From a bacterium (lineage in GTDB: Bacteria; Desulfobacterota; Deferrisomatia; Deferrisomatales; BM512), in the NCBI GenBank assembly GCA_004322275.1, contig SCTA01000040.1, positions 6,138-70,137 on the forward strand: a DNA stretch of 64,000 nt, written 5' to 3'. Positions 6,954 to 45,741 of the stretch are shown here, piece by piece. The notes below the pieces were generated by a model. It ran no database searches and was not told the DNA's origin. It saw only the letters and a program-made list of their open reading frames with translations. Within the stretch, counting starts at the first letter, position 1; each line of letters begins with the position of its first letter. The translations under genes and the position numbers were made by a program.

Positions 6954-7622
6954 ATGTTAGCCAGGCGTACTGCCCCAACGGTCAAACGGACAGGATATTC
7001 GGGGCTTTTACCCCTTATCGCGCTGGCGCTCCTTTTCTCGTCCTGTACCTCTGCTTTTAAAAGCCCATACCCTCCGAGGTGGGGCAAGCTTAGACCTTCG
7101 CCGGAAGGAGGCTGCCAAGACGTAAGCGGCTCTTATGACAATGAAGGCAAGGACTCCGGTTTTGAGAATAACATCGGTTCTTCGGGGATGTCGTTTGACT
7201 GGATATTTTTACCGGATACCTTCTATGGGGGGAGGAGCGATTACATAACTTTAGAGATGAAACCTCCATCGCAGCTTATTTACAGGGGCTTCCTGCCCAA
7301 TGGGAAACTGAATTTCGAGAAAAGTGGCCAGTATGAGTGCGTTAACGGGGGTGTAGCGGTCAAAAGCAACAGGATTGATAGGGACTGGGTGAATTCTTTA
7401 AAGCTTTTGGAGATTTTAGGCAAAGAAACCGCGACGTTCACTTTCAGAAAAACCGTCAACGGAGAATTGGCGGTTTCCCTGGAGGGCAAAAAAACCGGTC
7501 TGTTGTGCATTAACGTCGGCTGTTGCGGAATGCCCATCGGAACAATGTCTCAAGAACGCGAAAGATGGTATCTCTTCAAGCCAGCAAATCGACTTAAGGT
7601 ACAAAAACCAGGACTTCCTTAA
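6954..7622 (+). CDS. Hypothetical lipoprotein (lower G+C than surroundings)
   Basis: It has a signal peptide with lipobox LLFSSC. No family was recognised. Two 60-nt lines inside the gene count 47% and 42% G+C. Confidence 0.55.
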   Translation: MLARRTAPTVKRTGYSGLLPLIALALLFSSCTSAFKSPYPPRWGKLRPSPEGGCQDVSGSYDNEGKDSGFENNIGSSGMSFDWIFLPDTFYGGRSDYITLEMKPPSQLIYRGFLPNGKLNFEKSGQYECVNGGVAVKSNRIDRDWVNSLKLLEILGKETATFTFRKTVNGELAVSLEGKKTGLLCINVGCCGMPIGTMSQERERWYLFKPANRLKVQKPGLP

Positions 7623-7635
7623 CTGTTCGCCCATC

Positions 7636-8454
7636 CTACGATTCTACGATATTTTCGACCCTGAATATCTCGTTCGCAAGCCGTATCCACTGCGCCGAGT
7701 CCAACTCCTCCGGCCTTTCCGTTCCCTTCAGCCCCACCCTTTGCAGAACCTCGTCCCCTTCCCCGAGACGGTCCCTGAGGCAGTTTCTGAGCATCTTTCG
7801 CCTGTGCTGGAAGCTCTCTCCGACGATCGACCAGAGGGTCTCCTCGTCGTCGATGGGAAGCACGGTCTTCGAGAGAGGGTCGAGGCGTATCACGGCGGAT
7901 TCTACCTTCGGCGGAGGCCGGAAAGCGCCCGGAGGAACCTTCATAATTACTTTAACGTCGCAGAATATCTGGGCGAGCACGCTTAGGTTTCCGCGCACCC
8001 TGCCGCCCGGCCCGGCGGCAATCCTCTGGGCCACCTCTTTCTGGAACATGAGAGTCATCGACTTGAAGGCGCGGCGCTCTTTGAGCAGCAGAGCGAGGAG
8101 GGGGCCGGAGATGTTGTAGGGAAGATTGGCGACAAGCCGGAAGGGTTCCCCGGCGGATTTTGCGAGTTCTATGTAATCCGTCTTGAGGGCGTCGCCCTCG
8201 ATTATCTCCACCCCCTCGAAGCCGCCTTCCCGGAGGTGCTCGATCATCCGCCGGTCGGTCTCCACGGCCCAGACCCGCGCCCCGGCGTCGAGGAGCGCCC
8301 TTGTAAGTCCTCCCGGCCCCGGCCCTATCTCCAGCACCGCCTCGCCGGGAATTACCCCGGCCAGCCTTACGATTTTACCGAGAATGTTCTTGTCGAAGAG
8401 GAAGTGCTGACCGAGGGACTTTTTGGGCGAGGGAGCGAGTGGCGCAGCGCTCAT
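7636..8454 (-). CDS. rsmA: 16S rRNA (adenine1518/adenine1519-N6)-dimethyltransferase
   Basis: SLGQHFL and EIGPGPGGLT motifs of KsgA/RsmA. The track ORF is trimmed to the ATG at 8454 (MSAAPLAP...), which overlaps the tsaD stop as ATGA. The 67 upstream codons are Arg/Pro-rich and lie inside tsaD. Confidence 0.9.
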   Translation of the reverse strand: MSAAPLAPSPKKSLGQHFLFDKNILGKIVRLAGVIPGEAVLEIGPGPGGLTRALLDAGARVWAVETDRRMIEHLREGGFEGVEIIEGDALKTDYIELAKSAGEPFRLVANLPYNISGPLLALLLKERRAFKSMTLMFQKEVAQRIAAGPGGRVRGNLSVLAQIFCDVKVIMKVPPGAFRPPPKVESAVIRLDPLSKTVLPIDDEETLWSIVGESFQHRRKMLRNCLRDRLGEGDEVLQRVGLKGTERPEELDSAQWIRLANEIFRVENIVES

Positions 8455-11009: not shown

Positions 11010-12152
11010 TCACTTCAGGTTTGAGAGTTTTATGAGTGCGTCGCAGAGCGCGTCGGCGTCGGCGATGGTGTTGAAGGGGCCGAAACTGGCGCGCACGGCC
11101 CCGCCGGGGAAGGTCCCTATGGTCTTGTGGGCGTCCGGGGCGCAGTGAAGGCCGACCCTCACCGCAATTGAAAACACTTCGTCGAGCGCGTACCCGAGGT
11201 GCGCGCCGTCAACGCCTTCGAGGTTGAAAGAGACCACGGCGACCCTTTTTTCAGGGTCTTTCGGGCCGTATTCCCAAAGCCCCTTGATCTCTTTGAATCT
11301 TGCGAGGAGGTGGGAAAGTATCTCCAGCTCCCCCTTCCGGATATTCTCCACCCCCTTTTCGAGGAGCCAGGAGATTCCCGCTCCGAGACCGGCAATTCCG
11401 GGGGTGTTCATCGTCCCTGCCTCCAGCCTCTCGGGGAAGACCTCCGGCATCTGCCGGGATTCGCTGGCGAAGCCGGTGCCGCCCTCCATGAGAGGGGCGA
11501 GGTCTATCGAGGGGGAGACGTAGAGAATGCCGGTGCCCTGCGGTCCCAGAAGCCCCTTGTGGCCCGGCGCGGTCAGCATGGATACCCCGTCGCGCACCAC
11601 GTCTACCGGCACAACTCCGGCGGTCTGAGAAGCGTCGAGAAGGAGCGCGACCCCCCTTGTTTTGCAGATTTCGCCGACTCTTTTGAGGTCCAGCAGAGCG
11701 CCGGTGACGTTGGAGCCGTGGGTAAGGGCGACGAGGCGGGTTTGAGGCTTTATAGCCCTTTCGACCGCTTCGGGCTCGATAATGCCGGTCTTATCCGCCG
11801 TTACCGTGGAAACCTCAACGCCGGACTGCCGGAGGGCGTGGAGCGGGCGAAGGATGCTGTTGTGCTCCATTGAGGAGGTGACGACGTGGTCACCCGGTTT
11901 GAGGGAAAACCCCTTCAGAGCGATGTTTATAGCGTGGGTCGCGTTGGAGGTGAAGATTATGCGCGAGGAATCGCCCGCGCCGAGGAGCTTTGCCGCCAGT
12001 TCTCTCGTTTCGTGGATTATCCGCGCCGCGCTGAGGGCGCTTCCGTGACCCGAGCGGCCCGGATTCGCGCCGAGGCGCAGCGCTTCGTCGGCGGCTCTGT
12101 AGACAGCCTCGGGCTTGGGGTGTGAACTTGCGGCGTTATCCAGATAGATCAT
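11010..12152 (-). CDS. Class V aminotransferase / cysteine desulfurase family protein
   Basis: MIYLDNAASSHPKP start, THGSNVTG, and a PLP-lysine region (APGHKGLLGPQG) typical of the NifS/CsdA-like fold. Confidence 0.85.
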   Translation of the reverse strand: MIYLDNAASSHPKPEAVYRAADEALRLGANPGRSGHGSALSAARIIHETRELAAKLLGAGDSSRIIFTSNATHAINIALKGFSLKPGDHVVTSSMEHNSILRPLHALRQSGVEVSTVTADKTGIIEPEAVERAIKPQTRLVALTHGSNVTGALLDLKRVGEICKTRGVALLLDASQTAGVVPVDVVRDGVSMLTAPGHKGLLGPQGTGILYVSPSIDLAPLMEGGTGFASESRQMPEVFPERLEAGTMNTPGIAGLGAGISWLLEKGVENIRKGELEILSHLLARFKEIKGLWEYGPKDPEKRVAVVSFNLEGVDGAHLGYALDEVFSIAVRVGLHCAPDAHKTIGTFPGGAVRASFGPFNTIADADALCDALIKLSNLK

Positions 12153-12153
12153 T

Positions 12154-13005
12154 TCAGTTCCTCGGTCCCTTGCAGGACCCGTCCCGCCTGCCGTCGCCGG
12201 GAGCCAGGCCGGGGCACCCTCCCCGGCATAGCGAGGCCAGAGAGCAGGGCGAGCACTCCCCGGGCAGCCTTGAAAGCTCTTCCCGGATTCTAGCTCTTTC
12301 TTCGGATTTCCATAACTCTTTCATGGAGTGCTCCAGAAGATTCCCCAGTTCCAGAGGGAGCGTCCGGCAGACGAGGAGATTCCCCTTCACATCGACGTGC
12401 GCCAGAGTCTGGCCCCCGGCGCAGCCGGGGTAGCCTGAAAAGGGATTTTGCCCCATCTCCTCGGAAAGGAAGAGATCGTGAATTTTCAGCGGAATATGTC
12501 CGGGTCTTCCTCTGCTTTCCCAAATCCTTACAACCTTTTCGATTGTCTCCCCGGAAAGAGGGGCCGCGGGCCGGCAGGGATTCAGCACGCTAAGCCCCCC
12601 GCCCTCCATCGCAAATCCCAGCGCCTTTTCAAAATCCGAAAGCCCCTCGTCCGTTGACCACAGCCCCCAGGAAAATTCCCTCGCCTTTTTGACCGTCTCC
12701 TCGAATTCGCCCCTCTCGGGATAGGGCGGGAGCAAGGTCAGGGAGACGTTCCCTATCCAGTCGTCCCCGCACTCCCGAAGCACCCTAAGAATCGTCGGCC
12801 AATCCGCCGCGAGACCGAAACGGACACGGCGAAGGGTCAGAAGTTCCCGGTGGAAACCGCAAAATCCGGGTACCGCCGGAAAATCCAGATGCGCTTCGAT
12901 AAAGAGAGGCTTTCCATCGACGATTTTTCCCCATAGGGCTCTCGCCGTCTGGATATCGGCGGGGATATCCCAGGTGACTCGCAGGGGGGAGGTAAGTTCA
13001 GGCAT
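12154..13005 (-). CDS. SPASM-domain protein lacking the radical SAM CX3CX2C motif
   Basis: The C-terminus GCAGGQTLAHVDVKGNLLVCRT...GECSPCSLASLCRGGCPG matches the SPASM/auxiliary Fe-S pattern. No CX3CX2C occurs in the N-terminal 180 aa. Confidence 0.6.
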   Translation of the reverse strand: MPELTSPLRVTWDIPADIQTARALWGKIVDGKPLFIEAHLDFPAVPGFCGFHRELLTLRRVRFGLAADWPTILRVLRECGDDWIGNVSLTLLPPYPERGEFEETVKKAREFSWGLWSTDEGLSDFEKALGFAMEGGGLSVLNPCRPAAPLSGETIEKVVRIWESRGRPGHIPLKIHDLFLSEEMGQNPFSGYPGCAGGQTLAHVDVKGNLLVCRTLPLELGNLLEHSMKELWKSEERARIREELSRLPGECSPCSLASLCRGGCPGLAPGDGRRDGSCKGPRN

Positions 13006-23820: not shown

Positions 23821-25407
23821 TTAAACTCTCGAAACCTTTCCGCCGGATTCTGCCGCCCAGTGGTCCACCGCCCTTGCCCCGTCTATCGCCGCGCTTACAA
23901 TTCCTCCCGCGTAACCCGCCCCCTCGCCTACCGGATAGAGATTTTTAAAGGTCAGGGACCTCATCTCCCCGTCCCGAAGGATGCGCACCGGGCTGGAGGT
24001 TCTCGTTTCGACGCCGATAAGGTTACCACCCGCCAGCGGCGGTAACTGGGCGATAAGCGCGGGCAGGGCGTCACGAAGGGCCGTAGAGGCGAACCGGGGC
24101 AGGCACTCCGAAAGATCGGCCTTTTTCAGAGGCCACGGGCAATTGGAATGCACCTCAGGTCCGCTCCCTTTTCCGAGAAACGCCGCCACGGTCTGAGAGG
24201 GCAGAGCCATCTCACCCGCCAGTTCATACCCCCTCTTCTCCCAGCGCCGCTGAAAATCCAGCCCCTTCAGGGGATCCCCCCCGAAATCCTCCGGCCTCGT
24301 CTCCACCACCAGCGCGGCGTTGGCGTTTTTGCCGGAGCGCATCGCCCCGCTCATGCCGTTGACCACAACGCCGCCCGGTTCGGCTCCGGCGGGTATGACC
24401 GTCCCGCCCGGGCACATGCAGAAGGAATATACGCCCCTCCCGTCGCCCGAACGAGCCTTGATTGAGAACTCGGCGGGCGAAAGACCGGGGTAACCGGCCC
24501 ACCTGCCGTACTGCTGCGAATTAACAAGCTCCTGCGGAAGCTCGACCCTGACGCCGACGGCGAAACCCTTGGCCTGAAGGTCCACCCCCTGCTTTCCGAG
24601 CGCCCGGTAGAGTTCGCGGGAGCTGTGGCCTGTGGCCAGAAAGACCGCCCCGGCCGGAAGCTCGCCTTCTTCGGTGATTATTCCCCTGACGCGGTTCTCT
24701 TCAATTATGAGTTCCCGGGCTCTTCTCCCGAAGAAAAAAACCGCGCCCCTCTTCGTCAGATACTCCCTGACGTTGGCGATTATCCGGCGCAGCCTGTCGG
24801 TGCCGAGGTGAGGCCTGGAGTCGAAGAGAATCTCTTCGCCACCCCCGGCCTCGACGAGCCGCCGGAGGACCCACTCCTTCCGGAAGTCCTTCACCCTCGT
24901 GGTGAGCTTGCCGTCGGAAAAGGCCCCCGCCCCCCCTTCGCCGAACTGCACGTTGCTCAAGGGGTTTAAAATCCCCTTCCTCCAGTACGCCGCTACGTCA
25001 GCCATCCGCTCGCGGACAATCTTCCCCTGTTCGAGGATTACAGGCCTCAATCCGTATTCGCAGAGGCGTAGCGCCGCAAAGAGACCGGCGGGCCCCGCCC
25101 CGACGACAAGCGGAGGATGGCGTGGAAGGGTTGTTACCGGCCTTACGGCCCACTCCTCGCCCTCGTAGCGCGAAACCTCGGCTGCCGACTCCTGTACCTT
25201 TAGTTCGCCGTCCACCTCCAGAACCACGGAGTACTCGTAAACCGGGGGCCTTCTCCCTCTGGCGTCCATCGACCTTTTCAGTATCGAAAGGGAAAGGACT
25301 TTTCCGGGTGAAACGGACAGACGCCCCGCGGCCGCTTCCAGAAGTTCTCTTTTTCCGGAGCCGGGCGCGAGTCTGAGGTTTCTCACTGCAAAGCGGTTTA
25401 CATGCAA
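23821..25407 (-). CDS. FAD-dependent oxidoreductase (COG2509-like)
   Basis: Dinucleotide-binding motif VVGAGPAGLFAALRL. Overall similarity is to NAD(FAD)-utilising dehydrogenases. Its stop lies 4 nt before the cytochrome gene start. Confidence 0.85.
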   Translation of the reverse strand: MHVNRFAVRNLRLAPGSGKRELLEAAAGRLSVSPGKVLSLSILKRSMDARGRRPPVYEYSVVLEVDGELKVQESAAEVSRYEGEEWAVRPVTTLPRHPPLVVGAGPAGLFAALRLCEYGLRPVILEQGKIVRERMADVAAYWRKGILNPLSNVQFGEGGAGAFSDGKLTTRVKDFRKEWVLRRLVEAGGGEEILFDSRPHLGTDRLRRIIANVREYLTKRGAVFFFGRRARELIIEENRVRGIITEEGELPAGAVFLATGHSSRELYRALGKQGVDLQAKGFAVGVRVELPQELVNSQQYGRWAGYPGLSPAEFSIKARSGDGRGVYSFCMCPGGTVIPAGAEPGGVVVNGMSGAMRSGKNANAALVVETRPEDFGGDPLKGLDFQRRWEKRGYELAGEMALPSQTVAAFLGKGSGPEVHSNCPWPLKKADLSECLPRFASTALRDALPALIAQLPPLAGGNLIGVETRTSSPVRILRDGEMRSLTFKNLYPVGEGAGYAGGIVSAAIDGARAVDHWAAESGGKVSRV

Positions 25408-25523: not shown

Positions 25524-27923
25524 ATGAAGAACCCTGTGCAGCAGGATTTGCTAAGGAAGAAGGTACCGCCCGATTCCTTCGGTTTTGAAACTACCGCGGA
25601 ACTCCCCCAGCTCTGGAAACCCCTCGGGCAAGACCGCGTGCTTTCCGCCCTCAATTTCGGCCTCGACGTAGAAAGCCACGGCTACAACGTCTTCCTCTTC
25701 GGCCCCCCCGGAGCCGGCAAGCAGACCACGGCTACCGGCGTCATAGAAGAATTCGCGAAAAAGGGTGCCGTTCCCGACGACTGGGTTTACGTCTTCAATT
25801 TTGAAGAAGAGGAAAAGCCCAGGGCCATAGCGCTGACTCCCGGACTCGGCGAGGAGTTCCGCGACGGCGTGGCGCACCTCGTTCAATGGCTGATCGAAGA
25901 GATACCCAAGGTCTTCCAGAACGAGCTGTACATAAAAGAAAAGGAAGAGGTCTTCAGGAAAAACCAGGAGGCCAAGAACGAGGCTTTCCAGTCTCTCGAA
26001 GAACTGGCCAACGTCCACAGCTTCATCGTACAGAGAAGCGCGGAGGGTCTGGCCCTCATTTACGGCAAGGACAACGAGCCTCTGAGCCCGGACGATTTCG
26101 AGAAACTCACGGACGAAGAAAAGGGGGTCATCCAGAGATCCCGCGACATATTGCAGGAGAAACTGCGCGAGACGATAAATCTCGTAAAAGAGATCGACCA
26201 GCAGATGCAGGAAAGCCTGAAAGAACTCGACAACCGCTACGCGATGTCCGCCGTCGGACAGGAGTTCTTTCTGCTCGAAGACAAATACAAAGGTTTCCCC
26301 CGCGTCATCCAGTACCTTCAGGCCCTGAAAAAGGACGTTCTCGAAAACATCGCCAGATTCCGGACCGACAGCCGCGACGGGCCGCCAATCCCCCTCCTCC
26401 CCTTCTTCCCCAGAGACGAGGGGCCGGGCGAACTGGTTAAGCGCTACAAGGTCAATCTTCTCGTCAACAACAAGGGGCTTGAACACGCTCCGGTCGTCTT
26501 TGAATCCAACCCCAACCATCACAACCTCCTCGGCAGGATGGAGTACAGGGCGCAGTACGGCACCTTTTTCACTGATTATACGCAGATAAAGGCCGGGGCC
26601 TTCCACCGCGCCAACGGCGGCTTTCTCGTCCTCAGCGCCCGCGAGGTCCTCCTTAATCCCTTCGCCTACGAGGCTATGAAGCGGATTTTAAAGGATCAGG
26701 AGATACGGATGGAGGAGATCGGCGAGCAGTACCGCCTCATCTCCACCACCACCCTCCGGCCCGAGCCGATTCCCATAAGGACCAAGGTCGTCCTCCTCGG
26801 AACGCAGTGGATATACTACCTCCTCCAGCAGTACGACGAGGATTTTCACAAGCTCTTCAAGGTCAAGGGCGAGTTCGTTAGCGAGATGGAGGACACCGAC
26901 GACAACAGGATGTGCTACGCCTACCTCGTAGCCAACCAGTGCGCCCGGGAAGGTCTCATCCACTTCAGCCGGAAGGCCGTAGCCTACTTCGTCGAAGAAG
27001 GTTTCCGCATGGCGGAACATCAGAAAAAACTGGCGACCCACTTTCTGGGTCTCTGCGACCTGGTGCGCGAAGCGAGCCACTGGGCCAAAATAGCCGGGCA
27101 GAGCGTCGTAGACGAGACGCACGTCAAAAAGGCACTCGACCAGATTAAATACCGCAGCGACTACCTTGAAAAACTCCTCGGCGAGATGATTACCGACGGC
27201 TCCATCCTCATCGACACCGAAGGTACGGTTGTAGGCCAGGTCAACGGCCTCTCCGTCTACGACATGGGAGACTACGCCTTCGGCAAGCCCTCAAGGGTGA
27301 CGGCGAGAGTCTTCCTCGGCAAGGAGGGCGTCATAAATATTGAGCGCGAATCCGAGCTGGGAGGCAGAATCCACAACAAAGGCGTGCTGATACTCCAGGG
27401 GTTCTTCGGTGCCAGGTACGCGCAGCGTGTACCGCCCACCTTCGGCGCAAGCATCTGCTTCGAGCAGTCCTACGGCGGCGTGGAGGGCGACAGCGCCTCC
27501 TCCACCGAACTTTACGCCCTGATCTCCGCCATCACCGACATCCCCCTCCGGCAGGATATAGCCGTCACGGGGTCGGTAAACCAGATGGGGCAGATACAGG
27601 CCATCGGCGGGGTAAACCTCAAAATCGAGGGATTCTTCAACACCTGCAAGGCTAAAGGGCTCACCGGAACGCAGGGGGTGATGATCCCGCAGGCCAACGT
27701 CCAGAACCTCATGCTTGACGAAGAGGTCGTAAAAGCCGTAAACGAAGGGAAGTTTCATATATACTCGGTCTCGACCGTGGACGAAGGGCTTGAGATACTC
27801 ACCGGCATGACCCCCGGCACCGCCAACGAATTCGGCGATTACCCCGAAGGAACGCTGAATGCGAGGGTGGTCTCCAGACTTGAGAGATTCGCGAACCAGT
27901 GGAAGAAGCTGCACACTGATTAA
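25524..27923 (+). CDS. Lon-like AAA+ protease (LonB/COG1067 type)
   Basis: Walker A GPPGAGKQT, a long helical insertion, and a C-terminal Lon proteolytic domain (GDSASSTELYAL with catalytic Ser, GGVNLKIEGF with Lys). Confidence 0.88.
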   Translation: MKNPVQQDLLRKKVPPDSFGFETTAELPQLWKPLGQDRVLSALNFGLDVESHGYNVFLFGPPGAGKQTTATGVIEEFAKKGAVPDDWVYVFNFEEEEKPRAIALTPGLGEEFRDGVAHLVQWLIEEIPKVFQNELYIKEKEEVFRKNQEAKNEAFQSLEELANVHSFIVQRSAEGLALIYGKDNEPLSPDDFEKLTDEEKGVIQRSRDILQEKLRETINLVKEIDQQMQESLKELDNRYAMSAVGQEFFLLEDKYKGFPRVIQYLQALKKDVLENIARFRTDSRDGPPIPLLPFFPRDEGPGELVKRYKVNLLVNNKGLEHAPVVFESNPNHHNLLGRMEYRAQYGTFFTDYTQIKAGAFHRANGGFLVLSAREVLLNPFAYEAMKRILKDQEIRMEEIGEQYRLISTTTLRPEPIPIRTKVVLLGTQWIYYLLQQYDEDFHKLFKVKGEFVSEMEDTDDNRMCYAYLVANQCAREGLIHFSRKAVAYFVEEGFRMAEHQKKLATHFLGLCDLVREASHWAKIAGQSVVDETHVKKALDQIKYRSDYLEKLLGEMITDGSILIDTEGTVVGQVNGLSVYDMGDYAFGKPSRVTARVFLGKEGVINIERESELGGRIHNKGVLILQGFFGARYAQRVPPTFGASICFEQSYGGVEGDSASSTELYALISAITDIPLRQDIAVTGSVNQMGQIQAIGGVNLKIEGFFNTCKAKGLTGTQGVMIPQANVQNLMLDEEVVKAVNEGKFHIYSVSTVDEGLEILTGMTPGTANEFGDYPEGTLNARVVSRLERFANQWKKLHTD

Positions 27924-27924
27924 A

Positions 27925-27988
27925 GTAGGGTGCGTTAGGCGAAGCCGTAACGCACCAGAGATTTGCTCGACGTTTTTTAACAGCCTCC
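27925..27988 (+). repeat. Composite intergenic repeat: palindromic hairpin module + right-terminal motif of subfamily A
   Basis: GTAGGGTGCGTTAGGCGAAGCCGTAACGCACC (hairpin 27930-27955) is followed by CTCGACGTTTTTTAACAGCCTCC. The latter matches the right end of the element at 41823-41845. Confidence 0.8.
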
Positions 27989-28010
27989 TTACCTTAAAAG
28001 AGGTTTTTAG

Positions 28011-28271
28011 ATGAAAAAGTGGTTAAACATCGGTTTTATCGCGCTTTGCGCCCTGATTTTGATAGTTCTCTGGAACGCGCCCCCCGAAACCACCAAGAAA
28101 ACGCCGAACGACAAGACCCACGAGAACCCCAGGCAGTTCGAGCGCTGCCCCTCATGCCACATCGAGGGAACCGAAGGCGCACCCAAAGTCCTTCCCGACC
28201 ACCTCAACAGGGAGGGGAAGCTGATGTTGGACCACGTTAAATGTTATATGTGCCACAAGGAGAAGAAGTAA
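28011..28271 (+). CDS. Small membrane-anchored diheme c-type cytochrome
   Basis: 86 aa with an N-terminal TM helix and two CXXCH sites (CPSCH, CYMCH). An AAAGAGG Shine-Dalgarno lies upstream. Confidence 0.75.
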   Translation: MKKWLNIGFIALCALILIVLWNAPPETTKKTPNDKTHENPRQFERCPSCHIEGTEGAPKVLPDHLNREGKLMLDHVKCYMCHKEKK

Positions 28272-28319
28272 CTCTTTGTCCAGCGCATCCTTTACGCCCC
28301 CGGCGTGTCACTTGCCTGA

Positions 28320-28452
28320 CGGCTTCGGCTTTTGCCGCGGGGCGAAGCCTGCCCTCGGAATCTTTTACCGGGGGTCGCTACTCGCTCGCGCTCCTCGACG
28401 TAGTCACGCTACTATCTTCGTCGCGCTCACTGCGGGCTCCTCGCCCGGCGAC
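28320..28452 (+). repeat. Intergenic repeat, subfamily B copy
   Basis: It shares CGGCTTC..GGCGAAG..CGCGCTCCTCG.CGTA....TAC....TCGTCGCGC....CTGCGG.CTCCT.GCCC with 44350-44454 (reverse complement; by my by-eye count about three quarters of the right ~60 nt match) and more loosely with 53406-53506. Confidence 0.6.
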
Positions 28453-28546
28453 AAAATCCTGTGCCGTATTTAAAAGCGGGTCTCTGCAATTGCGCCGGAT
28501 TACCGTCATTTCCACAAAATAATCCGGCTTGGGCAAGCTCTCAGAC

Positions 28547-28630
28547 CGTGGGGTGTGTTAGCCGCGAAGCGGCGTAACGCACCGAAACTTTAGCGAAGCA
28601 GGTCGCTGCGCGGGCCTTGCATTTGGGGCT
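28547..28630 (+). repeat. Palindromic hairpin module + right-arm-like segment
   Basis: CGTGGGGTGTGTTAGCCGCGAAGCGGCGTAACGCACCGAAA (hairpin variant) is followed by GTCGCTGCGCGGGCCTTGCATTTGGGGCT. The latter resembles CTCGCTGCGCGTCTCCTTGAAACCGGGGCT of subfamily A. Confidence 0.65.
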
Positions 28631-28666
28631 ATTCCGGTGCAGGTTTGAACCCAACCGTAGGGTGTT

Positions 28667-29512
28667 TCATCTGCAAAGCGGTCTTTTCCCGATTGCGTAC
28701 GAAACTTTCACATCAAGCCATATCCCTTCACCTGTCGAGAGTTCCTGTATCTCCTTCAAATGTTCTTTCTTAAACTCCTCCAGATCATCAGGAGTAAGCT
28801 CCTTCAAGAGTCTGCGGAGGCCCGCATTCCATACAACATCCCACCATTGTCCGGCATCGGCGAGATGATAGCCAAGGTCTTTAACATCGACGCGGATATC
28901 GGCCAGCCCGGCATTTTCAAAAAGTGAAATGCATTCCTCAGGGGTTGAGAGGCGCCGCAACGCCGAGGGAGTCTCAACGCCGTATTTACCGATTCGCTCA
29001 GAGAACATATCCACCAGCGGAGAAAAAGTCCCTTCGCAAAAGTTCGTCACAATCACCTTTCCGCCCGGCTTCACCTTTGAAAGGATATGACAAAGCAGTT
29101 GCTCCATGTCTTCTACGAAGAAGATGCTGAATGAAAATACCGCAGCATCGAAAAAACAGTCCGGGAAATAGAGGGCCTGCATGTCCATGGGGATCAGAGT
29201 GATATTACGTAGGCCTCTATCCCTGATCTTGGCTTTTGCGCGCGCGAGCATCCCCTCTGAAAAATCGATTCCCGTAACGTGGCCCCCCGGCAAGGCTCCA
29301 GCAAGCGCTATCGCGGCGTTGCCGGTGCCGGTCGCGACATCAAGCACATTTTCATTGCCATCGAGGTCCATGAATTCCGGAATATATTTCGCGCTCTCGG
29401 AGAAATAGCGCAGAGCGGGATTGTCATATCCTTCAGCCACGTCGTCAAACGTCTCTCTGAGCTTCTCTTTTACTTCTTTCTCACTAGCGGGGTCGTTCAT
29501 TCTCTTCTCCAA
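28667..29512 (-). CDS. Class I SAM-dependent methyltransferase
   Basis: SAM-binding motif I VLDVATGTGNAAIALA and a post-I acidic residue (GIDFS). The 3' half of the gene is visibly lower in G+C (two lines counted: 47% and 40%). Confidence 0.88.
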   Translation of the reverse strand: MEKRMNDPASEKEVKEKLRETFDDVAEGYDNPALRYFSESAKYIPEFMDLDGNENVLDVATGTGNAAIALAGALPGGHVTGIDFSEGMLARAKAKIRDRGLRNITLIPMDMQALYFPDCFFDAAVFSFSIFFVEDMEQLLCHILSKVKPGGKVIVTNFCEGTFSPLVDMFSERIGKYGVETPSALRRLSTPEECISLFENAGLADIRVDVKDLGYHLADAGQWWDVVWNAGLRRLLKELTPDDLEEFKKEHLKEIQELSTGEGIWLDVKVSYAIGKRPLCR

Positions 29513-29533
29513 GCCTGGTCGGATTGAGGATAT

Positions 29534-29570
29534 TATCGGTGCGTTACGGCTTCGCCTAACGCAACCTACG
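29534..29570 (-). repeat. Palindromic hairpin module, inverted copy
   Basis: Its reverse complement CGTAGGTTGCGTTAGGCGAAGCCGTAACGCACCGATA is nearly identical to 27925-27956 and related to 28547-28586. Confidence 0.8.
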
Positions 29571-29602
29571 TTTACTCCGCTTTCGCGGGAGCGACGATCA
29601 AA

Positions 29603-30931
29603 TCAAGAACCTTTGCCCTCCAGAAACTCCAGCGTAGTCAGCGGCGCGCCGAACTCTTCCTTCGGCCGGTTGAAGTAACCTATGTCCAGCTTCGGGAACT
29701 CACGTTTGAGTTTCAGGGCCGCGTTCTTTATCCCTATCGCTCCCTTCGCCTCCTTGATGTCTTTCGGGAGGTTTTCGAGGTAAAGCCTCGGGTCGATGGA
29801 CATATTGCGGAAGTGAACCATCTGGAGTCCGGTCGAATTCACAAGCTCGAAGAGGGCGTCCATTTCCTCCGGCAGGTCGGTGACGCCGGGGAAGATAAGG
29901 TAATTGAGCGCGGTGTAAAGCCCCTCTTTGACCGAAAGCTCAAGCGACCTTCTCACGTCGGAGAAGCGGTAGGTGCGCGGCCTGTAGTAGGCGTTGTAGG
30001 CGGTTTCCCGCGCGGAGTTCGCGGAAATCCTCACCGAATCGAGCCCGGCGCGGGCGACTTTAAGAAGCTCCTCCGGCAGACTCCCGTTGGTGTTGAGATG
30101 AACAGTTCCCTTTTGCGTTCTGGCGCGAAAATCCTTTACGGCGCTCTCCAGCAGGTTTCCGCCGAGGAGAGGTTCTCCCTCGCACCCCTGGCCGAAGCTG
30201 ACTACCCCCCTCTCGACCCCTTCGAGGTGCTCGACGGCGACCTCGGAAAGCTCTTCGACGGTGGGGGTGAACTCTATCCGCTCCTGAGAGGCGGGGCAGC
30301 AGTCGGAGGGCTGGAGGCTGATGCAGCCGACGCAGGCGGCGTTGCAGGCCATCGCCGTCGGGAGCGGCGCTTCCCACCGCTGCATGAAAAAGTTCTTCGC
30401 GGCGAAGCAGTGGTATTCGAGTGCGCAGCGGGAAAGGTGCGTGATAAGGCGGTTTTGCGGTGATTTTTTAATCCGCTTTCTCACCCTCGGGGCGATCTCC
30501 CTGTCGTCGTAGTGGCAGGTCTCGGAATGGGTCATCGGATCGACGCGGAAGGCCGCCGCGACCATCTTCCCCTCCCGCCAGCCAACCGCCGCGTACGCCC
30601 AGAGCGGGAGGTAGGAGTGGCAGCCGTAGTCCGGCGCGCCGCCGGGGTAACTTGCCGCCGGAAGTAACGTCCTCGCGTACCCGGCCTGCAGCATGGCGGT
30701 TACGCCCCTCATGTTCTTCAAAACCTTCGGCTTTTGCGCGGCCTCGTCCCATCCCACGGCCTGCGAGCCGGGTAGGAAGAAGACTTTCGTACCCTCCGGC
30801 AGAGGGATAAGCTCCTCCTCGTCTACCCTCACCCACGAAGCGCCGGATTGTCCCGTCATCGAAAGCTCGTGATGGTCGTAGATATTCCCGCCGTTGTCGC
30901 AGACCAGAAGTTTCGCACTTTCTCTCTTCAT
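29603..30931 (-). CDS. Radical SAM enzyme with ~200-aa N-terminal extension
   Basis: CNAACVGC (CX3CX2C) occurs about 205 aa into the protein, and no SPASM-type C-terminal Cys cluster is present. The track ORF is trimmed to the ATG at 30931 (MKRESAKLLVCDNGG), which overlaps the rhomboid TGA (ATGA). The upstream part of the 658-aa track ORF lies out of frame over the rhomboid gene. Confidence 0.8.
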   Translation of the reverse strand: MKRESAKLLVCDNGGNIYDHHELSMTGQSGASWVRVDEEELIPLPEGTKVFFLPGSQAVGWDEAAQKPKVLKNMRGVTAMLQAGYARTLLPAASYPGGAPDYGCHSYLPLWAYAAVGWREGKMVAAAFRVDPMTHSETCHYDDREIAPRVRKRIKKSPQNRLITHLSRCALEYHCFAAKNFFMQRWEAPLPTAMACNAACVGCISLQPSDCCPASQERIEFTPTVEELSEVAVEHLEGVERGVVSFGQGCEGEPLLGGNLLESAVKDFRARTQKGTVHLNTNGSLPEELLKVARAGLDSVRISANSARETAYNAYYRPRTYRFSDVRRSLELSVKEGLYTALNYLIFPGVTDLPEEMDALFELVNSTGLQMVHFRNMSIDPRLYLENLPKDIKEAKGAIGIKNAALKLKREFPKLDIGYFNRPKEEFGAPLTTLEFLEGKGS

Positions 30932-31620
30932 CGTACCGAAGAACCCTTTTCGCCCCTGAAAATGTAATAGGCCGCAGCCCCCGCGACGAACCCGCCGATG
31001 TGCGCCATCCACGCGACGTTCCCGGCGACCCCTCCCGCGCCCTGTATGAGCTGGAGAAAGAACCATATCCCCAGAAAGACCACTGCGGGAAGCTCTATGA
31101 ACTGGAAAAAGAAGAAGATCGGCACGAGGGTGAGCACCCTCGCTTTCGGGAATTTGAGCATGTACGCCCCGAGAACGCCCGCTATGGCCCCCGAAGCCCC
31201 GACGGTGGGTAGGGTAGAGGTGAAGTTGAAGGCGAGATGTATGAGCCCCGCGAAAAGCCCCCAGACCAGATAGCAGGCGAGGAACCTGACCGTGCCGAGC
31301 CACTCCTCCACGTTGTCGCCGAAGATCCAGAGCATCCACATATTCCCCAGCAAGTGAAAAAATCCCCCGTGGATAAAGATGGAAGAGAAAAAGGGAAGCG
31401 ACTGCTCCCAGAGGGTGAAACGGGCGGAAAGTGACGGGTCGGAATAGCGTATGGGCAGGATGCCGAACTTGTTGAAAAAGGCGTAGGTTTCCTCGGTGGG
31501 TATGCGGGAGAGCACCCCCGCCTGTATCTCGATTATAAAAACGAAGACGTTCAGGACGATTATGAGATACACCCCCCAAGGGGTGGTTCTCGTCGGGTTA
31601 AGGTCGCGTATGGGGAACAA
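30928..31620 (-). CDS. Rhomboid-family intramembrane serine protease
   Basis: Six or more TM helices, with HGGFFHLLGNMW, a catalytic GASGAIAGVLGA and a catalytic-His region WMAHIGGFVAG. Confidence 0.9.
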   Translation of the reverse strand: MFPIRDLNPTRTTPWGVYLIIVLNVFVFIIEIQAGVLSRIPTEETYAFFNKFGILPIRYSDPSLSARFTLWEQSLPFFSSIFIHGGFFHLLGNMWMLWIFGDNVEEWLGTVRFLACYLVWGLFAGLIHLAFNFTSTLPTVGASGAIAGVLGAYMLKFPKARVLTLVPIFFFFQFIELPAVVFLGIWFFLQLIQGAGGVAGNVAWMAHIGGFVAGAAAYYIFRGEKGSSVR

Positions 31621-43022: not shown

Positions 43023-43379
43023 ATGGAAACCATTGTAAGACCCCTCGACGTAATCGGGGTGTACATCGACGAAAAGCTCGCCTTCTTCGCGAGGGTCGAG
43101 GAGATATCTCCCGACGTAAAACCGGGATGGCGGAAAATGCGCTTTTTAATCCTCAACCCGGCTATCGAAGAGCGCGAAATGACCTGGATACTGCAACCCT
43201 CGCAGATAAACGGCGAACCCTACTCGATGGAGGGCATTCCCGTCCGCATCGAGCGTCTACCCGACCCAGTCCCGGCCGCAACTGAGTCTCCCCCCGAAGA
43301 GGAGCCTCCCGCCCGTAAGGAAAAAACGGAAAAAACCGCGAGAGTGATAGAGTTTCCGGGCCGGAGAGAGAAACATTGA
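43023..43379 (+). CDS. Hypothetical protein
   Basis: 118 aa, sandwiched with 1-nt and 4-nt junctions between the CYTH and RluA-family genes. No motif was recognised. Confidence 0.5.
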   Translation: METIVRPLDVIGVYIDEKLAFFARVEEISPDVKPGWRKMRFLILNPAIEEREMTWILQPSQINGEPYSMEGIPVRIERLPDPVPAATESPPEEEPPARKEKTEKTARVIEFPGRREKH

Positions 43380-44332
43380 AAAGAGAAGGTGAAAGAAAGA
43401 GCGCCCCGAGGCAGTCGAGGATACAGGGAACGCCCTTCACCGTGGTCTACGAGGACAAGGACATCCTCGTGGCCAACAAGAAGGCGGGCATCCTGACGGT
43501 TCCAATTCCCGGAAAGAGCTCGAAGAACCTCGAAGAGATAATCAACAATTACCTCCTCTCCCAGAAACGCTCGGCGCAGGCCGTACACCGCATAGACCGC
43601 TTCACCTCCGGCCTCGTCGTCTTCGGCAAGGGGAGAAACGCCTGGGGCAAGCTGGTGGAGCAGTTTAAGGAGCACACCCCCGAGCGCGTCTACCTCGCGG
43701 TGGTGCGCGGCGTTCCCAGGAAGGACGAGGGCACCCTCCGCCACCAGCTAAAGCTGACCAAGAACGGCTTTCGCCAGCTTGTAGTGAAAACCGACGGCAC
43801 ACTAGCGATAACCCACTACAAGGTTCTGGAGAAATTCGACGGCGCTTCGCTTCTTGAGGTGCGCCTTGAGACCGGCCTCAAAAACCAGATTCGCGTCCAG
43901 TTCCGGGCCATCGGCAATCCGCTGGTCGGCGACCGCCACTACAGCCCCGGCGAGGAGGAAGAGGTGCTGCTCGATCGTCAGGCCCTTCACGCCTGGAAAC
44001 TGTCCTTCAAGCACCCCACCGAGGGCAGGATAGTCTCCTTTGAAGCCCCTCTCCCGCAGGACATGGAGTCGCTGATCGCGCGGCTCCGCAAAGGCGGCGC
44101 CAAAAGAAAAGAAGCTCCCCAAGCGAAAGATACTCCTTCGCGTAAAGAAACCGCTCCGAGGAAAGAGGCTCCTCCGAAGAAGGAAGCCCCTCCGAAGAAG
44201 GAAGCCCCTCCGAAGAAGGAAGCCCCTCCGAAGAAAGAAGCCCCTCCGAAGAAAGAGCCGCCAAACAGGTTCAAAAAATCGATGCGCGGAGAGCCTGTCA
44301 AGAAGAAGCGTACGGCGAGGGTCAAGCCGTAA
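43376..44332 (+). CDS. RluA-family pseudouridine synthase with KKEAPP-repeat tail
   Basis: Catalytic motif HRIDRFTSGLVVFGK and the NQIRVQF motif. The C-terminal ~70 aa is Lys/Pro/Glu-rich with five tandem KKEAPP units. Confidence 0.88.
   Translation: MKREGERKSAPRQSRIQGTPFTVVYEDKDILVANKKAGILTVPIPGKSSKNLEEIINNYLLSQKRSAQAVHRIDRFTSGLVVFGKGRNAWGKLVEQFKEHTPERVYLAVVRGVPRKDEGTLRHQLKLTKNGFRQLVVKTDGTLAITHYKVLEKFDGASLLEVRLETGLKNQIRVQFRAIGNPLVGDRHYSPGEEEEVLLDRQALHAWKLSFKHPTEGRIVSFEAPLPQDMESLIARLRKGGAKRKEAPQAKDTPSRKETAPRKEAPPKKEAPPKKEAPPKKEAPPKKEAPPKKEPPNRFKKSMRGEPVKKKRTARVKP
44145..44262 (+). repeat. Coding 18-bp tandem repeat (KKEAPP x5-6)
   Basis: GAAGCCCCTCCGAAGAAG is reiterated head-to-tail with minor variants. 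Confidence 0.85.
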
Positions 44333-44349: not shown

Positions 44350-44454
44350 CGGTGAAGGGCAAGGAGTCCGCAGGGCGCGCGACGAGCAGTACCGTTTATA
44401 CGGCGAGGAGCGCGCCCGAGAAACGACGCCGCCCTTCGCCGAAAGAGGAAGCCG
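44350..44454 (-). repeat. Intergenic repeat, subfamily B copy
   Basis: Its reverse complement aligns with 28320-28452 (shared blocks CGGCTTC, GGCGAAG, CGCGCTCCTCG, TCGTCGCGC, CTGCGG.CTCCT.GCCC). It fills the gap between two convergent genes. Confidence 0.6.
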
Positions 44455-44457
44455 GAC

Positions 44458-45741
44458 TTAGAGGTTGGCTCCGTAGATAAGAACGTTTTCCGGTATCACC
44501 TGCCCGCTCGGCTGATGCCTCCACTCCCTCCTCTCCAGCGCGAAGGGAATGTACAAAAGGCGCGCGCGCAGAATCCTGAACTCCGTAGTGGCGATCAGCG
44601 GCAGCCGGTTTTTCTTGTCCATAACCATTGACGAAAGGATTACCGGGAGGGCTTCGACCGCCTCCTTCAGCGAAAGCCTCACCGGCTCCGCGTTTATCTT
44701 CCCCTTCTCGGGCCTCGGCGGGCCGTGTTCGCCGGTAAAAAAGAGGGTGGCGATCTTTCCGAGGCGCAGGAATATCTTAGATTTTATCTTGAAACCCGGG
44801 ATCAGGGCCGAGCAGTTGTCCGAACCCCACTCTTTAGGCGTTATCCGGTAGGGGGTGGCCCAGAGGGCGAGGTCAGCCCTGCTCTTGAGCCCTATGGACT
44901 CCGCCGAAAAGTCCAGCTGCCAGAAGGGGAAGAGCCTCTGCCCCTCTCCCAGTTCGCCGAGAAGGGCAAAGGGCATCTCTCCGAACTTCTCTCCCCTCGT
45001 CCACCAGGCCTTCGCGCAGTTCGGGCACAGAAGCACCTCCGCGCCGTGGTCGGGGGGCAGAGCCCCCGCGCAATTGGGGCAGATGAGCGGCAAAAACCTC
45101 ATCGGGGCGTGGTTTCCGGCCTTTCCCAGCGCCTCTTTAAGCGCGCCCGCTTCACCCTGAGTGAGGCAGTACTGCCGCCCGTCCGGAAAAGCCTCCCGGA
45201 GACAGACTTTTTCCCCTTCCTCCCTGAGCGCGAAAGGGGCGTGGACGATTACGGCGGTCTCGCCGATGAGCCGGGACATGAGCTGGTCCACGCGCACGCC
45301 GAAGACCTTGTCCACGGCGCTGCCGTCGATGGCTTTTTCCACGGGGATGTCGGTTTGAGGGGTGTTTTTGGGCCAGTTGGTGAGGGTGAGCTGCCAGGCC
45401 TGGGGGCGCACGCCCAGACTCACCCCCTCAGGCAGGAGGGAGGTGGCGGGGGCGGTGGAATCGAGAAGATGGGCCTCGACCTCGCCCGTTTCGCTGAAGA
45501 CCTTGTAGCGGAGGCCCTTCAACCTCCAGAAGGGCAGGTAGATTATCTCCTCCCCTCGAAACTCGTCTACGACGGGCAGGCGGTAACCGAGCGGGCCGTC
45601 CTGAACTATGTAGAGGCTGGTTTTACAGTAGCGGCAGGAGAGGACCCTGTCGCCCACTTCGACTTCGACCTTGGCCCCGCACTGCGGGCAGGTCCCGACT
45701 GCTTCCCAAGCGGGGGAATTGCCTGACTCTTCCTCCGCCAC
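44458..45741 (-). CDS. Hypothetical protein with internally duplicated zinc-ribbon module
   Basis: There are two copies of [CPxCG...CxxC ribbon followed by an aromatic PFW motif]: CPQCGAKV...CRYCKT...YLPFWRL and CPNCAGAL...CPNCAKAWW...LFPFWQL. Confidence 0.6.
   Translation of the reverse strand: MAEEESGNSPAWEAVGTCPQCGAKVEVEVGDRVLSCRYCKTSLYIVQDGPLGYRLPVVDEFRGEEIIYLPFWRLKGLRYKVFSETGEVEAHLLDSTAPATSLLPEGVSLGVRPQAWQLTLTNWPKNTPQTDIPVEKAIDGSAVDKVFGVRVDQLMSRLIGETAVIVHAPFALREEGEKVCLREAFPDGRQYCLTQGEAGALKEALGKAGNHAPMRFLPLICPNCAGALPPDHGAEVLLCPNCAKAWWTRGEKFGEMPFALLGELGEGQRLFPFWQLDFSAESIGLKSRADLALWATPYRITPKEWGSDNCSALIPGFKIKSKIFLRLGKIATLFFTGEHGPPRPEKGKINAEPVRLSLKEAVEALPVILSSMVMDKKNRLPLIATTEFRILRARLLYIPFALERREWRHQPSGQVIPENVLIYGANL

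Follow-up and report, generated by a model that had tools for sequence, protein, structure and literature searches.

The window analysed here is a 64,000-nucleotide stretch of contig SCTA01000040.1 (GenBank assembly GCA_004322275.1) from an uncultured bacterium of the Deferrisomatales, and its feature of interest is a short imperfect hairpin that recurs within 1.65 kb around a gene encoding an S-adenosylmethionine (SAM)-dependent methyltransferase. A first-pass annotation, made from the sequence alone, had proposed that three such hairpins belong to a family resembling repetitive extragenic palindromic (REP) sequences or bacterial interspersed mosaic elements (BIMEs), and that they mark, or mediated, the acquisition of a ~1-1.6 kb cassette containing the methyltransferase gene and a small diheme cytochrome gene; terminator or stabiliser hairpins at gene ends were offered as the alternative. 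Our analysis identifies the hairpin as a REP element of the known GTAG kind, which is associated with the REP-associated tyrosine transposase (RAYT), and we consider it quite probable that the copies in the window are RAYT-dependent REPs which have gathered at a plastic junction flanked by two conserved gene blocks and which mark that junction without demonstrably having carried the methyltransferase gene. The two blocks converge on the junction, with the genes for the FAD-dependent protein, the Lon-like protease and the diheme protein (cyt86) on the left and the radical SAM, rhomboid, VWA and MoxR genes on the right. The features are as follows.

23821-25407, minus strand: gene for an FAD-dependent protein
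25524-27923, plus strand: gene for a LonC-like protease (Lon), the left conserved anchor (Pfam LonC_helical, AAA_32, LonB_AAA-LID and Lon_C)
27923-27960, plus strand: REP copy 1, variant A (covariance model 55.0 bits, E 1e-17)
28011-28271, plus strand: cyt86, encoding an 86-aa membrane-anchored protein with two CXXCH motifs
28272-28545: non-coding spacer from cyt86 to copy 2, rich in insertions and deletions (indels) relative to the related contig L191
28546-28587, plus strand: REP copy 2, variant B (covariance model 45.1 bits)
28657-28681, plus strand: truncated REP, variant B, on the 3' end of the methyltransferase gene
28667-29500, minus strand: gene for a class I SAM-dependent methyltransferase of 277 aa, counted from the ATG (Pfam Methyltransf_25/Ubie_methyltran)
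29534-29571, minus strand: REP copy 3, variant A (covariance model 50.8 bits)
29603-30931, minus strand: gene for a 442-aa radical SAM protein, the right conserved anchor (Pfam Radical_SAM)
30928-31620, minus strand: rhomboid gene
beyond the rhomboid gene, minus strand: VWA and MoxR genes

To define the complement of hairpins, a covariance model (R1) built from 53 hairpins of the family, including the window's own three copies, was run unfiltered on the 64 kb. It returned exactly three full matches, with E-values from 1e-17 to 5e-14, and these are the three hairpins of the first-pass annotation. Opposite-strand matches of these copies aside, the next scores in the whole window were 7.6 bits or lower, and R1 detected no further copy in the remaining ~62 kb. 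A search with a 26-nt core allowing up to three mismatches matched 27930-27955 (+) and 29539-29564 (-), compared with no match in 100 shuffled sequences. The truncated fourth copy at 28657-28681 (+), which overlaps the stop codon of the methyltransferase gene, had been overlooked. For three sites placed at random in 64 kb, the probability of a span of 1.65 kb or less is about 0.002.

The hairpin consists of an unpaired GTAG head, a 9-bp basal stem (GGTGYGTTA/TAACGCACC), a bulged G on the 3' arm, an apical stem and a GAA loop. The head is GTAG in copies 1 and 3 and in the truncated copy, and GTGG in copy 2, whose basal stem also contains a T.G pair. Variant A, represented by copies 1 and 3, has the apical stem GGC/GCC, and variant B, represented by copy 2, has GCCGC/GCGGC; the truncated copy retains the head, the 5' basal arm, the apical stem and the loop and has lost the 3' basal arm. 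The copies fold as stems of 12-14 bp with DNA energies of -9.2 to -13.1 kcal/mol, and the folding z-score is -6.2 for copy 1 (-12 kcal/mol) and about -2.8 for each of the other two. Among the copies, 1 and 3 are the most closely related pair, with 94% complementarity over 35 nt. The three intact copies are extragenic, lying in the spacers downstream of the Lon, cyt86 and radical SAM genes. Copy 1 starts 1 nt past the Lon stop codon, in the spacer between Lon and cyt86, with its GTAG strand on the sense strand of Lon. Copy 2 is located in the spacer between the convergent cyt86 and methyltransferase genes, 274 nt downstream of cyt86 and 69 nt from the truncated copy, and copy 3 lies 31 nt past the radical SAM stop codon and 33 nt ahead of the methyltransferase ATG, with GTAG on the sense strand of both genes. 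The REPs that bracket the methyltransferase gene point their GTAG motifs outward.

The assembly across the hairpins is credible, because the adjacency of Lon and cyt86 recurs in three other genomes and the linkage of the methyltransferase gene to the segment 28440-28479 recurs in an independent sample. When the source sample (SRR8426595) is viewed in its Logan assembly, a contig (L001) stops inside copy 1 (12400-12431) and the end of another (L185, position 3908) lies 6 nt past the tail of copy 2, while copy 3 was assembled through. These breaks may reflect further genomic copies or merely an effect of the palindromes, and give a weak hint of the former.

The same hairpin is present well beyond this lineage. 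We scanned GTDB, one genome per species, with the pattern GGTGCGTTACN{3,5}TTCN{3,5}TAACRCA, which leaves the head unspecified, and recovered at least 120 loci. Among the matches listed, the hosts are mostly Nostocales and other Cyanobacteria, accompanied by Rodentibacter abscessus (a complete genome), a Pseudomonas metagenome-assembled genome (MAG), another Pseudomonadota MAG, one Hyphomicrobiaceae MAG and two Syntrophaceae MAGs. Within this same set, host GC content ranges from 0.33 to 0.68, and copies are dispersed in the other genomes with several loci per genome. On plasmids, the hairpin was matched only in Gloeothece (Cyanothece) PCC 7822 and in Calothrix. Of about 125 genome matches, 90 have GTAGGG ahead of the stem, although the head was absent from the pattern, and the basal stem is invariant save for the C/T position that the pattern permits. 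The stem sequence, GGTGYGTTA...TAACGCACC with a bulged G and a GAA loop, is unlike the consensus sequences of the Escherichia coli, Pseudomonas and SMAG elements. The apical stem covaries: across the 53 family hairpins, 59 cells were changed on both sides, compared with 21.5 +/- 3 in shuffles, and 93.9% of cells were paired, compared with 23-48% when the 3' partner was slid by 1-3 columns. The hairpin body of copy 2 is the same as that of the Pseudomonas MAG copy, whose head is GTAG.

When a looser pattern was applied, 50 of the 53 close pairs among the matches listed proved to be inverted doublets with GTAG on the outside, separated by spacers mostly of 16-35 nt; the widest close pair is 149 nt apart and no doublet contains cargo. 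The family thus has the architecture of a REPIN, a unit of two inverted REPs with a short spacer that depends on a single-copy RAYT for its replication (Bertels and Rainey 2011, PMC3116915). Clustering of the open reading frames (ORFs) across the 120 hairpin loci listed revealed no protein that is regularly adjacent, as expected since REPs are dispersed. Two places in the Moorena bouillonii PNG5-198 genome depart from the inverted doublet that dominates elsewhere, with identical head-to-tail tandem copies of 83-nt period and identical flanks (L033, 5487-5599, and L044, 925-1037). A separate match comes from CAZZZY010000961.1, a 2.6-kb contig of GC 0.39 labelled as an Acetobacteraceae MAG, in which the hairpin flanks are near-identical to those of three Nostoc sp. 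P6620 loci (L048, L067 and L081); this contig probably belongs to Nostoc and was mis-binned in work on a lichen metagenome.

A direct association with a RAYT was found in a 201-kb Pseudomonadota MAG contig (L098), where two hairpin doublets 600 nt apart (7046-7145 and 7751-7850) enclose an ORF of 198 aa at 7148-7744 (-). This ORF matches NCBIfam NF047646, 'REP-associated tyrosine transposase', at 181.6 bits (equivalog, cut-off 80), and the REPs that flank it share the apical stem GCCGC/GCGGC with copy 2 of the window. Given the head, the palindrome, the inverted doublets and this flanked RAYT gene, the hairpin is a GTAG-class REP with a cognate RAYT at the level of the family, which substantiates the REP/BIME-like assignment of the first-pass annotation. 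The hairpin loci were also searched with a generic IS200-like Y1 profile; only one interrupted Y1_Tnp gene was found, and it is not used as evidence. That gene, in a Scytonema hyalinum MAG (L055, 1729-2855; PF01797, 48 bits), is apparently interrupted by a 123-aa ORF (2130-2501) and lies 1.5 kb from a lone hairpin, with no link between them found.

The properties of the hairpin agree closely with the GTAG REP superfamily surveyed by Di Nocera, De Gregorio and Rocco (2013, PMC3733652), which includes the E. coli REP/BIME elements with RayT (YafM), the Pseudomonas REPs and the Stenotrophomonas SMAGs. That survey describes 20-40 nt imperfect palindromes with an unpaired GTAG or GTGG, distributed over eight phyla including Cyanobacteria and comprising 24 GTAG families, which occur as singletons and dimers (the REPIN-type inverted pair being called an 'HH dimer'), are found chiefly 3' of ORFs, in spacers of unidirectional or convergent genes, often supply stop codons through their termini and flank RAYT genes. 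The unpaired head on a short palindrome, the singletons and inverted dimers, the location 3' of ORFs, the stop codon supplied by a REP end and the flanked RAYT gene all have counterparts in the hairpin family. The cyanobacterial families GTAG-12, -15 and -16 (Anabaena, Nostoc and Cyanothece) overlap with the hairpin hosts in a comparison made by genus only, and the hairpin sequence is absent from the supplements of that survey. A literature search with the hairpin sequence gave unrelated primer matches only. The inverted doublets elsewhere, and the RAYT gene between two of them in L098, likewise resemble REPINs (PMC3116915). Recognition by a Y1/HUH transposase of imperfect DNA hairpins on one strand is shared with IS200/IS605 elements and the palindrome-associated transposable elements (PATEs), their non-autonomous derivatives. 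In IS200/IS605 elements, however, the subterminal hairpins of the left and right ends differ from each other and stand in direct orientation, and tnpA or tnpB is usually present; the family described here has a single hairpin type, inverted doublets and a RAYT-type (NF047646) partner, with no tnpA or tnpB nearby.

To place the hairpins in the history of the locus, we compared the junction with that of relatives, identified through their radical SAM or Lon proteins. In the window, the closest named homologues of both anchors are from Deferrisomatales, at 59-63% identity for Lon and 65-69% for the radical SAM protein, and the radical SAM gene belongs to a conserved MoxR-VWA-rhomboid-radical SAM block. 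The gene calls made earlier were right both for the methyltransferase frame (28667-29512, -) and for the 86-aa diheme ORF; the ATG at 29500 is the start used in public gene calls. The spacer 28272-28545 has no Rfam match, and a 93-aa ORF inside it has no Pfam match. The arrangements in relatives, with protein identities to the window, are as follows.

L189 (radical SAM 93%): MoxR-VWA-rhomboid-radical SAM, with a PspC-like gene (11325-11519) that begins 1 nt past the stop codon
L197 (radical SAM 74%): radical SAM, then PspC (1964-2185)
L198 (radical SAM 71%): radical SAM, then a gene for an 836-aa protein
L190 (Deferrisoma camini) and L196 (Deferrisomatales MAG) (radical SAM 65-68%, Lon 61-62%): Lon-DUF3187 converging on radical SAM-rhomboid
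L193 and L194 (Lon 66%): Lon, followed 92 nt past the stop codon by an 85-aa protein that has two CXXCH motifs and shares 56-57% identity with cyt86
L195 (Lon 63%): Lon, followed 34 nt past the stop codon by an 86-aa protein that has two CXXCH motifs and shares 59% identity with cyt86

The content of the junction therefore differs in every lineage examined. With R1, all nine loci of relatives proved free of the hairpin: the Lon-cyt86 spacers of L193, L194 and L195 are hairpin-free, and no equivalent of copy 3 is present downstream of the radical SAM gene in L189, L197, L198, L196 or L190. By tblastn, no remnant of DUF3187 or PspC was detected in the spacer or elsewhere in the window. A search of metagenome contigs with Lon yielded only relatives of ~40% identity with no shared neighbours.

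The comparison separates the two genes of the proposed cassette. Orthologues of cyt86 of 85-86 aa and 56-59% identity follow Lon at 34-92 nt in L193, L194 and L195, and the GC content at third codon positions (GC3) of cyt86 is host-like, at 0.76. cyt86 is thus the native downstream partner of the Lon-like gene and stands outside any acquired cassette. Because this ancestral neighbour of Lon lies inside the outer hairpin pair, that pair cannot bound a cassette. The cyt86 protein matches Pfam Cytochrome_C554 below the cut-off, and no Pfam or NCBIfam family covers it. The Lon-cyt86 pair is found in four genomes (window 25524-28271; L193 1836-4585; L194 1815-4564; L195 6001-8686, where cyt86 was missed by gene calling), and the LonC-like protease and the tiny diheme protein may form an unrecognised functional pair.

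The methyltransferase gene, by comparison, has a GC content of 0.51 and a GC3 of 0.565, about 2 SD below the ORFs of the window (55 ORFs, mean GC 0.588 +/- 0.034 and GC3 0.709 +/- 0.073), which bears out the lower G+C reported in the first-pass annotation. The best named homologues of its product are in Nitrospirae MAGs (64-67%), followed by Nitrospinae, Desulfobulbaceae and others, and one Nitrospirae MAG carries the homologue in an unrelated context; no NCBIfam model passes its cut-off for this protein, all scores being far below it and pointing to no specific function. The gene is absent from all nine relatives' loci examined, a result that contradicts a methyltransferase syntenic in all relatives, the prospect that had been held against acquisition. 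Since it is both compositionally atypical and missing from the same place in every relative examined, the gene was most likely acquired horizontally. The cassette proposal consequently stands for the methyltransferase as probably acquired DNA, with its low GC and GC3, Nitrospirae homologues and absence from nine loci, and fails for cyt86.

A closer view of the methyltransferase gene came from L191, a 1,083-nt contig from another sample (SRR17933179) that encodes a methyltransferase 87% identical to that of the window. By blastn, L191 aligns to window positions 29506-28651 at 86% nucleotide identity and then to 28479-28440. A variant-B REP supplies, with its loop and apical stem, the last codons and stop of the L191 gene, CCG CTT CGC GGC TAA, and its basal arm and CTAC follow; this REP stretch is 96.6% identical to copy 2 of the window over 29 nt. 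The truncated REP of the window, identical to the better-preserved L191 version at 20 of 25 nt, encodes on the minus strand the last four codons and the stop codon of the methyltransferase gene. Other homologues are shorter by 0-4 residues at this end and terminate in ..G(K/V)(R/K); the PLCR*/PLRG* tail is present only in the two REP-fused genes. On this alignment, the end of the window gene is a decayed version of the REP fusion seen in L191, and the fusion would predate the split between the two lineages, because both genes share it. The downstream differences between the window and L191 are indels bounded by REP halves, and the segment 28440-28479 travels with the methyltransferase gene. 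L191 has no hairpin upstream of this gene, its DNA being unrelated from 6 nt before the ATG; copy 3 is therefore specific to the window lineage or locus.

Two further small features lie in the adjacent spacer. At 28495-28527, the 8-bp arms of an inverted repeat, CCGGATTA...TAATCCGG, enclose a loop of 17 nt, within a stretch of ~62 nt that is missing from the otherwise homologous L191 spacer. A second small repeat, unrelated to the REP, has copies at 28371-28446 (+) and 44357-44430 (-) with 76% identity over 76 nt and the shared core CGCGCTCCTCGnCGTA...TAC...TCGTCGCGC..CTGCGG.CTCCT.GCCC; both copies are intergenic, and the distal one is between the convergent ORFs 43376-44332 (+) and 44458-45741 (-).

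We infer the following order of events from these sequence comparisons. A methyltransferase gene that already bore a REP remnant would have arrived at the junction along with some of its downstream spacer, with a REP/RAYT system either resident in the genome or imported with the gene. Variant A would then have inserted into the two nearest spacers, giving copies 1 and 3, and a full variant-B copy would have been placed 69 nt from the remnant; all copies other than the fused one would be local REP insertions in the window lineage. RAYT, an HUH/Y1 enzyme, recognises REP hairpins and moves these non-autonomous elements in trans as single-stranded DNA, and the same would apply in the genome of the window.

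Several observations weigh against this interpretation. The window contains no RAYT or Y1 gene, and the hairpin is confined to one 1.65-kb locus with none in the other ~62 kb; a rough Poisson estimate suggests fewer than ~200 copies per ~4-Mb genome, which is low for a classical REP family. The copies are singletons without a degenerate partner detectable by R1, and the window has no inverted doublet. In being few, all singletons and at one locus, they are unlike the GTAG REPs of PMC3733652, and the inverted pair 0.85-1.6 kb apart with genes between its members is unlike a REPIN (PMC3116915). Singletons as such are normal among REPs. The L189 contig ends 197 nt after the radical SAM gene, so that a methyltransferase gene further downstream is possible there. 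Most matches in the protein searches lack an organism name. The case for a horizontal origin of the methyltransferase is built on its composition, on the best hits that carry a name and on the gene's absence at nine loci, and not on a phylogeny.

Could the hairpins instead be terminators or stabilisers of mRNA 3' ends that evolved locally, with no mobile history? Their positions are suggestive, since all three intact copies lie downstream of genes with GTAG in the sense orientation (at 1, 274 and 31 nt), their stems are stable and copy 1 sits between two genes that are probably co-transcribed; moreover, PMC3733652 considers it plausible that REPs 3' of ORFs are transcribed as RNA elements. However, no copy is followed by a T-tract (the tails are AGAGATTT, GAAACTTT and GATAATAT), so the copies are not canonical terminators, and a terminator scan of 27700-29800 on both strands found no terminator-like site, compared with 3.0 expected in shuffles. 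No Rfam 15 family matched at its gathering score anywhere in the window, or at E-values up to 5 in 27800-29700. The orthologous gene ends in relatives are hairpin-free, and local evolution does not explain why the same sequence, including its unpaired head, is present in distant phyla and flanks a RAYT gene. We therefore consider a purely local origin improbable, and the terminator alternative of the first-pass annotation fails in its canonical form. An effect of the REPs on mRNA stability is possible as a secondary role, which would at most add to their function and leave their origin unexplained.

A different possibility is that a mobile unit moved by RAYT (a 'giant REPIN' or composite element), with the inverted hairpins as its ends, delivered the methyltransferase gene with or without the cytochrome gene. 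The outward GTAG motifs of the flanking REPs match the polarity of the natural doublets, copies 1 and 3 are closest to each other, the enclosed methyltransferase gene is foreign by composition and absent in relatives, and the L191 homology breaks off 6 nt ahead of the ATG and 28 nt short of copy 3. Yet cyt86, within the outer pair, is an ancestral neighbour of Lon, and the REP next to the methyltransferase gene is truncated and probably inert. Natural doublets are far tighter, with none carrying cargo at the 120 loci listed. L191 keeps the 3' REP remnant and the downstream spacer with other upstream DNA and no upstream hairpin, and because it lacks this second end, a two-REP unit is not seen moving whole. 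Such a unit is very unlikely on this evidence: the REPs mark the junction and did not demonstrably mediate the acquisition. Two simpler histories of the outer pair were also rejected. Copies 1 and 3 are not the halves of a split ancestral doublet, since cyt86 inside the pair is ancestral next to Lon, and an inversion between them does not fit the present orientation of Lon and cyt86, which matches that in relatives.

We give a still smaller chance to the related proposal that the methyltransferase gene was trapped between inverted GTAG REPs and then excised and reinserted by RAYT (a 'loaded REPIN'), and we know of no description of cargo mobilisation by RAYT. If this were true, a domesticated REP/RAYT system would occasionally serve as a vehicle for horizontal gene transfer, and the spread of the REP across Cyanobacteria, Pseudomonadota and Desulfobacterota-like genomes would be a trace of its mobility. 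Finally, integron attC sites bounding gene cassettes can be dismissed almost entirely on size and orientation, for although the hairpin resembles them as an imperfect palindrome beside genes that has an extrahelical base, and GTTAGGC/GCCTAAC in its stem fits the attC core consensus (GTTRRRY/RYYYAAC), attC sites are ~55-140 nt long with two core pairs (R''-L'' and L'-R'), uniform orientation in arrays and an adjacent IntI, whereas the hairpin body is ~32 nt with one stem, its copies have mixed orientation (+,+,+,-) and the family elsewhere forms tight inverted doublets flanking RAYT and not an integrase.

Read as GTAG REPs that mark a plastic junction, the hairpins are in most respects ordinary: REPs are a well-described class, and both REP clusters at variable junctions and REP-derived stop codons have been reported already. 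The locus also corrects the cassette reading, in that a LonC-like protease has the tiny diheme cytochrome as its conserved partner, a pairing perhaps worth study. It allows events to be ordered, with fusion of a REP to a gene before a lineage split and local insertions later, which is useful for understanding REP dynamics in an uncultured Deferrisomatales-like lineage. The most unusual aspect is the distribution of the hairpin. A single REP sequence common to Cyanobacteria, Pseudomonadota and Desulfobacterota-like genomes, in at least three phyla and in hosts with GC contents from 0.33 to 0.68, fits poorly with the mostly vertical inheritance of REPIN-RAYT systems stated in the available part of a recent report (10.1101/2022.05.22.493013), and this cross-phylum hairpin is thus a test case for horizontal spread of the REP/RAYT pair.

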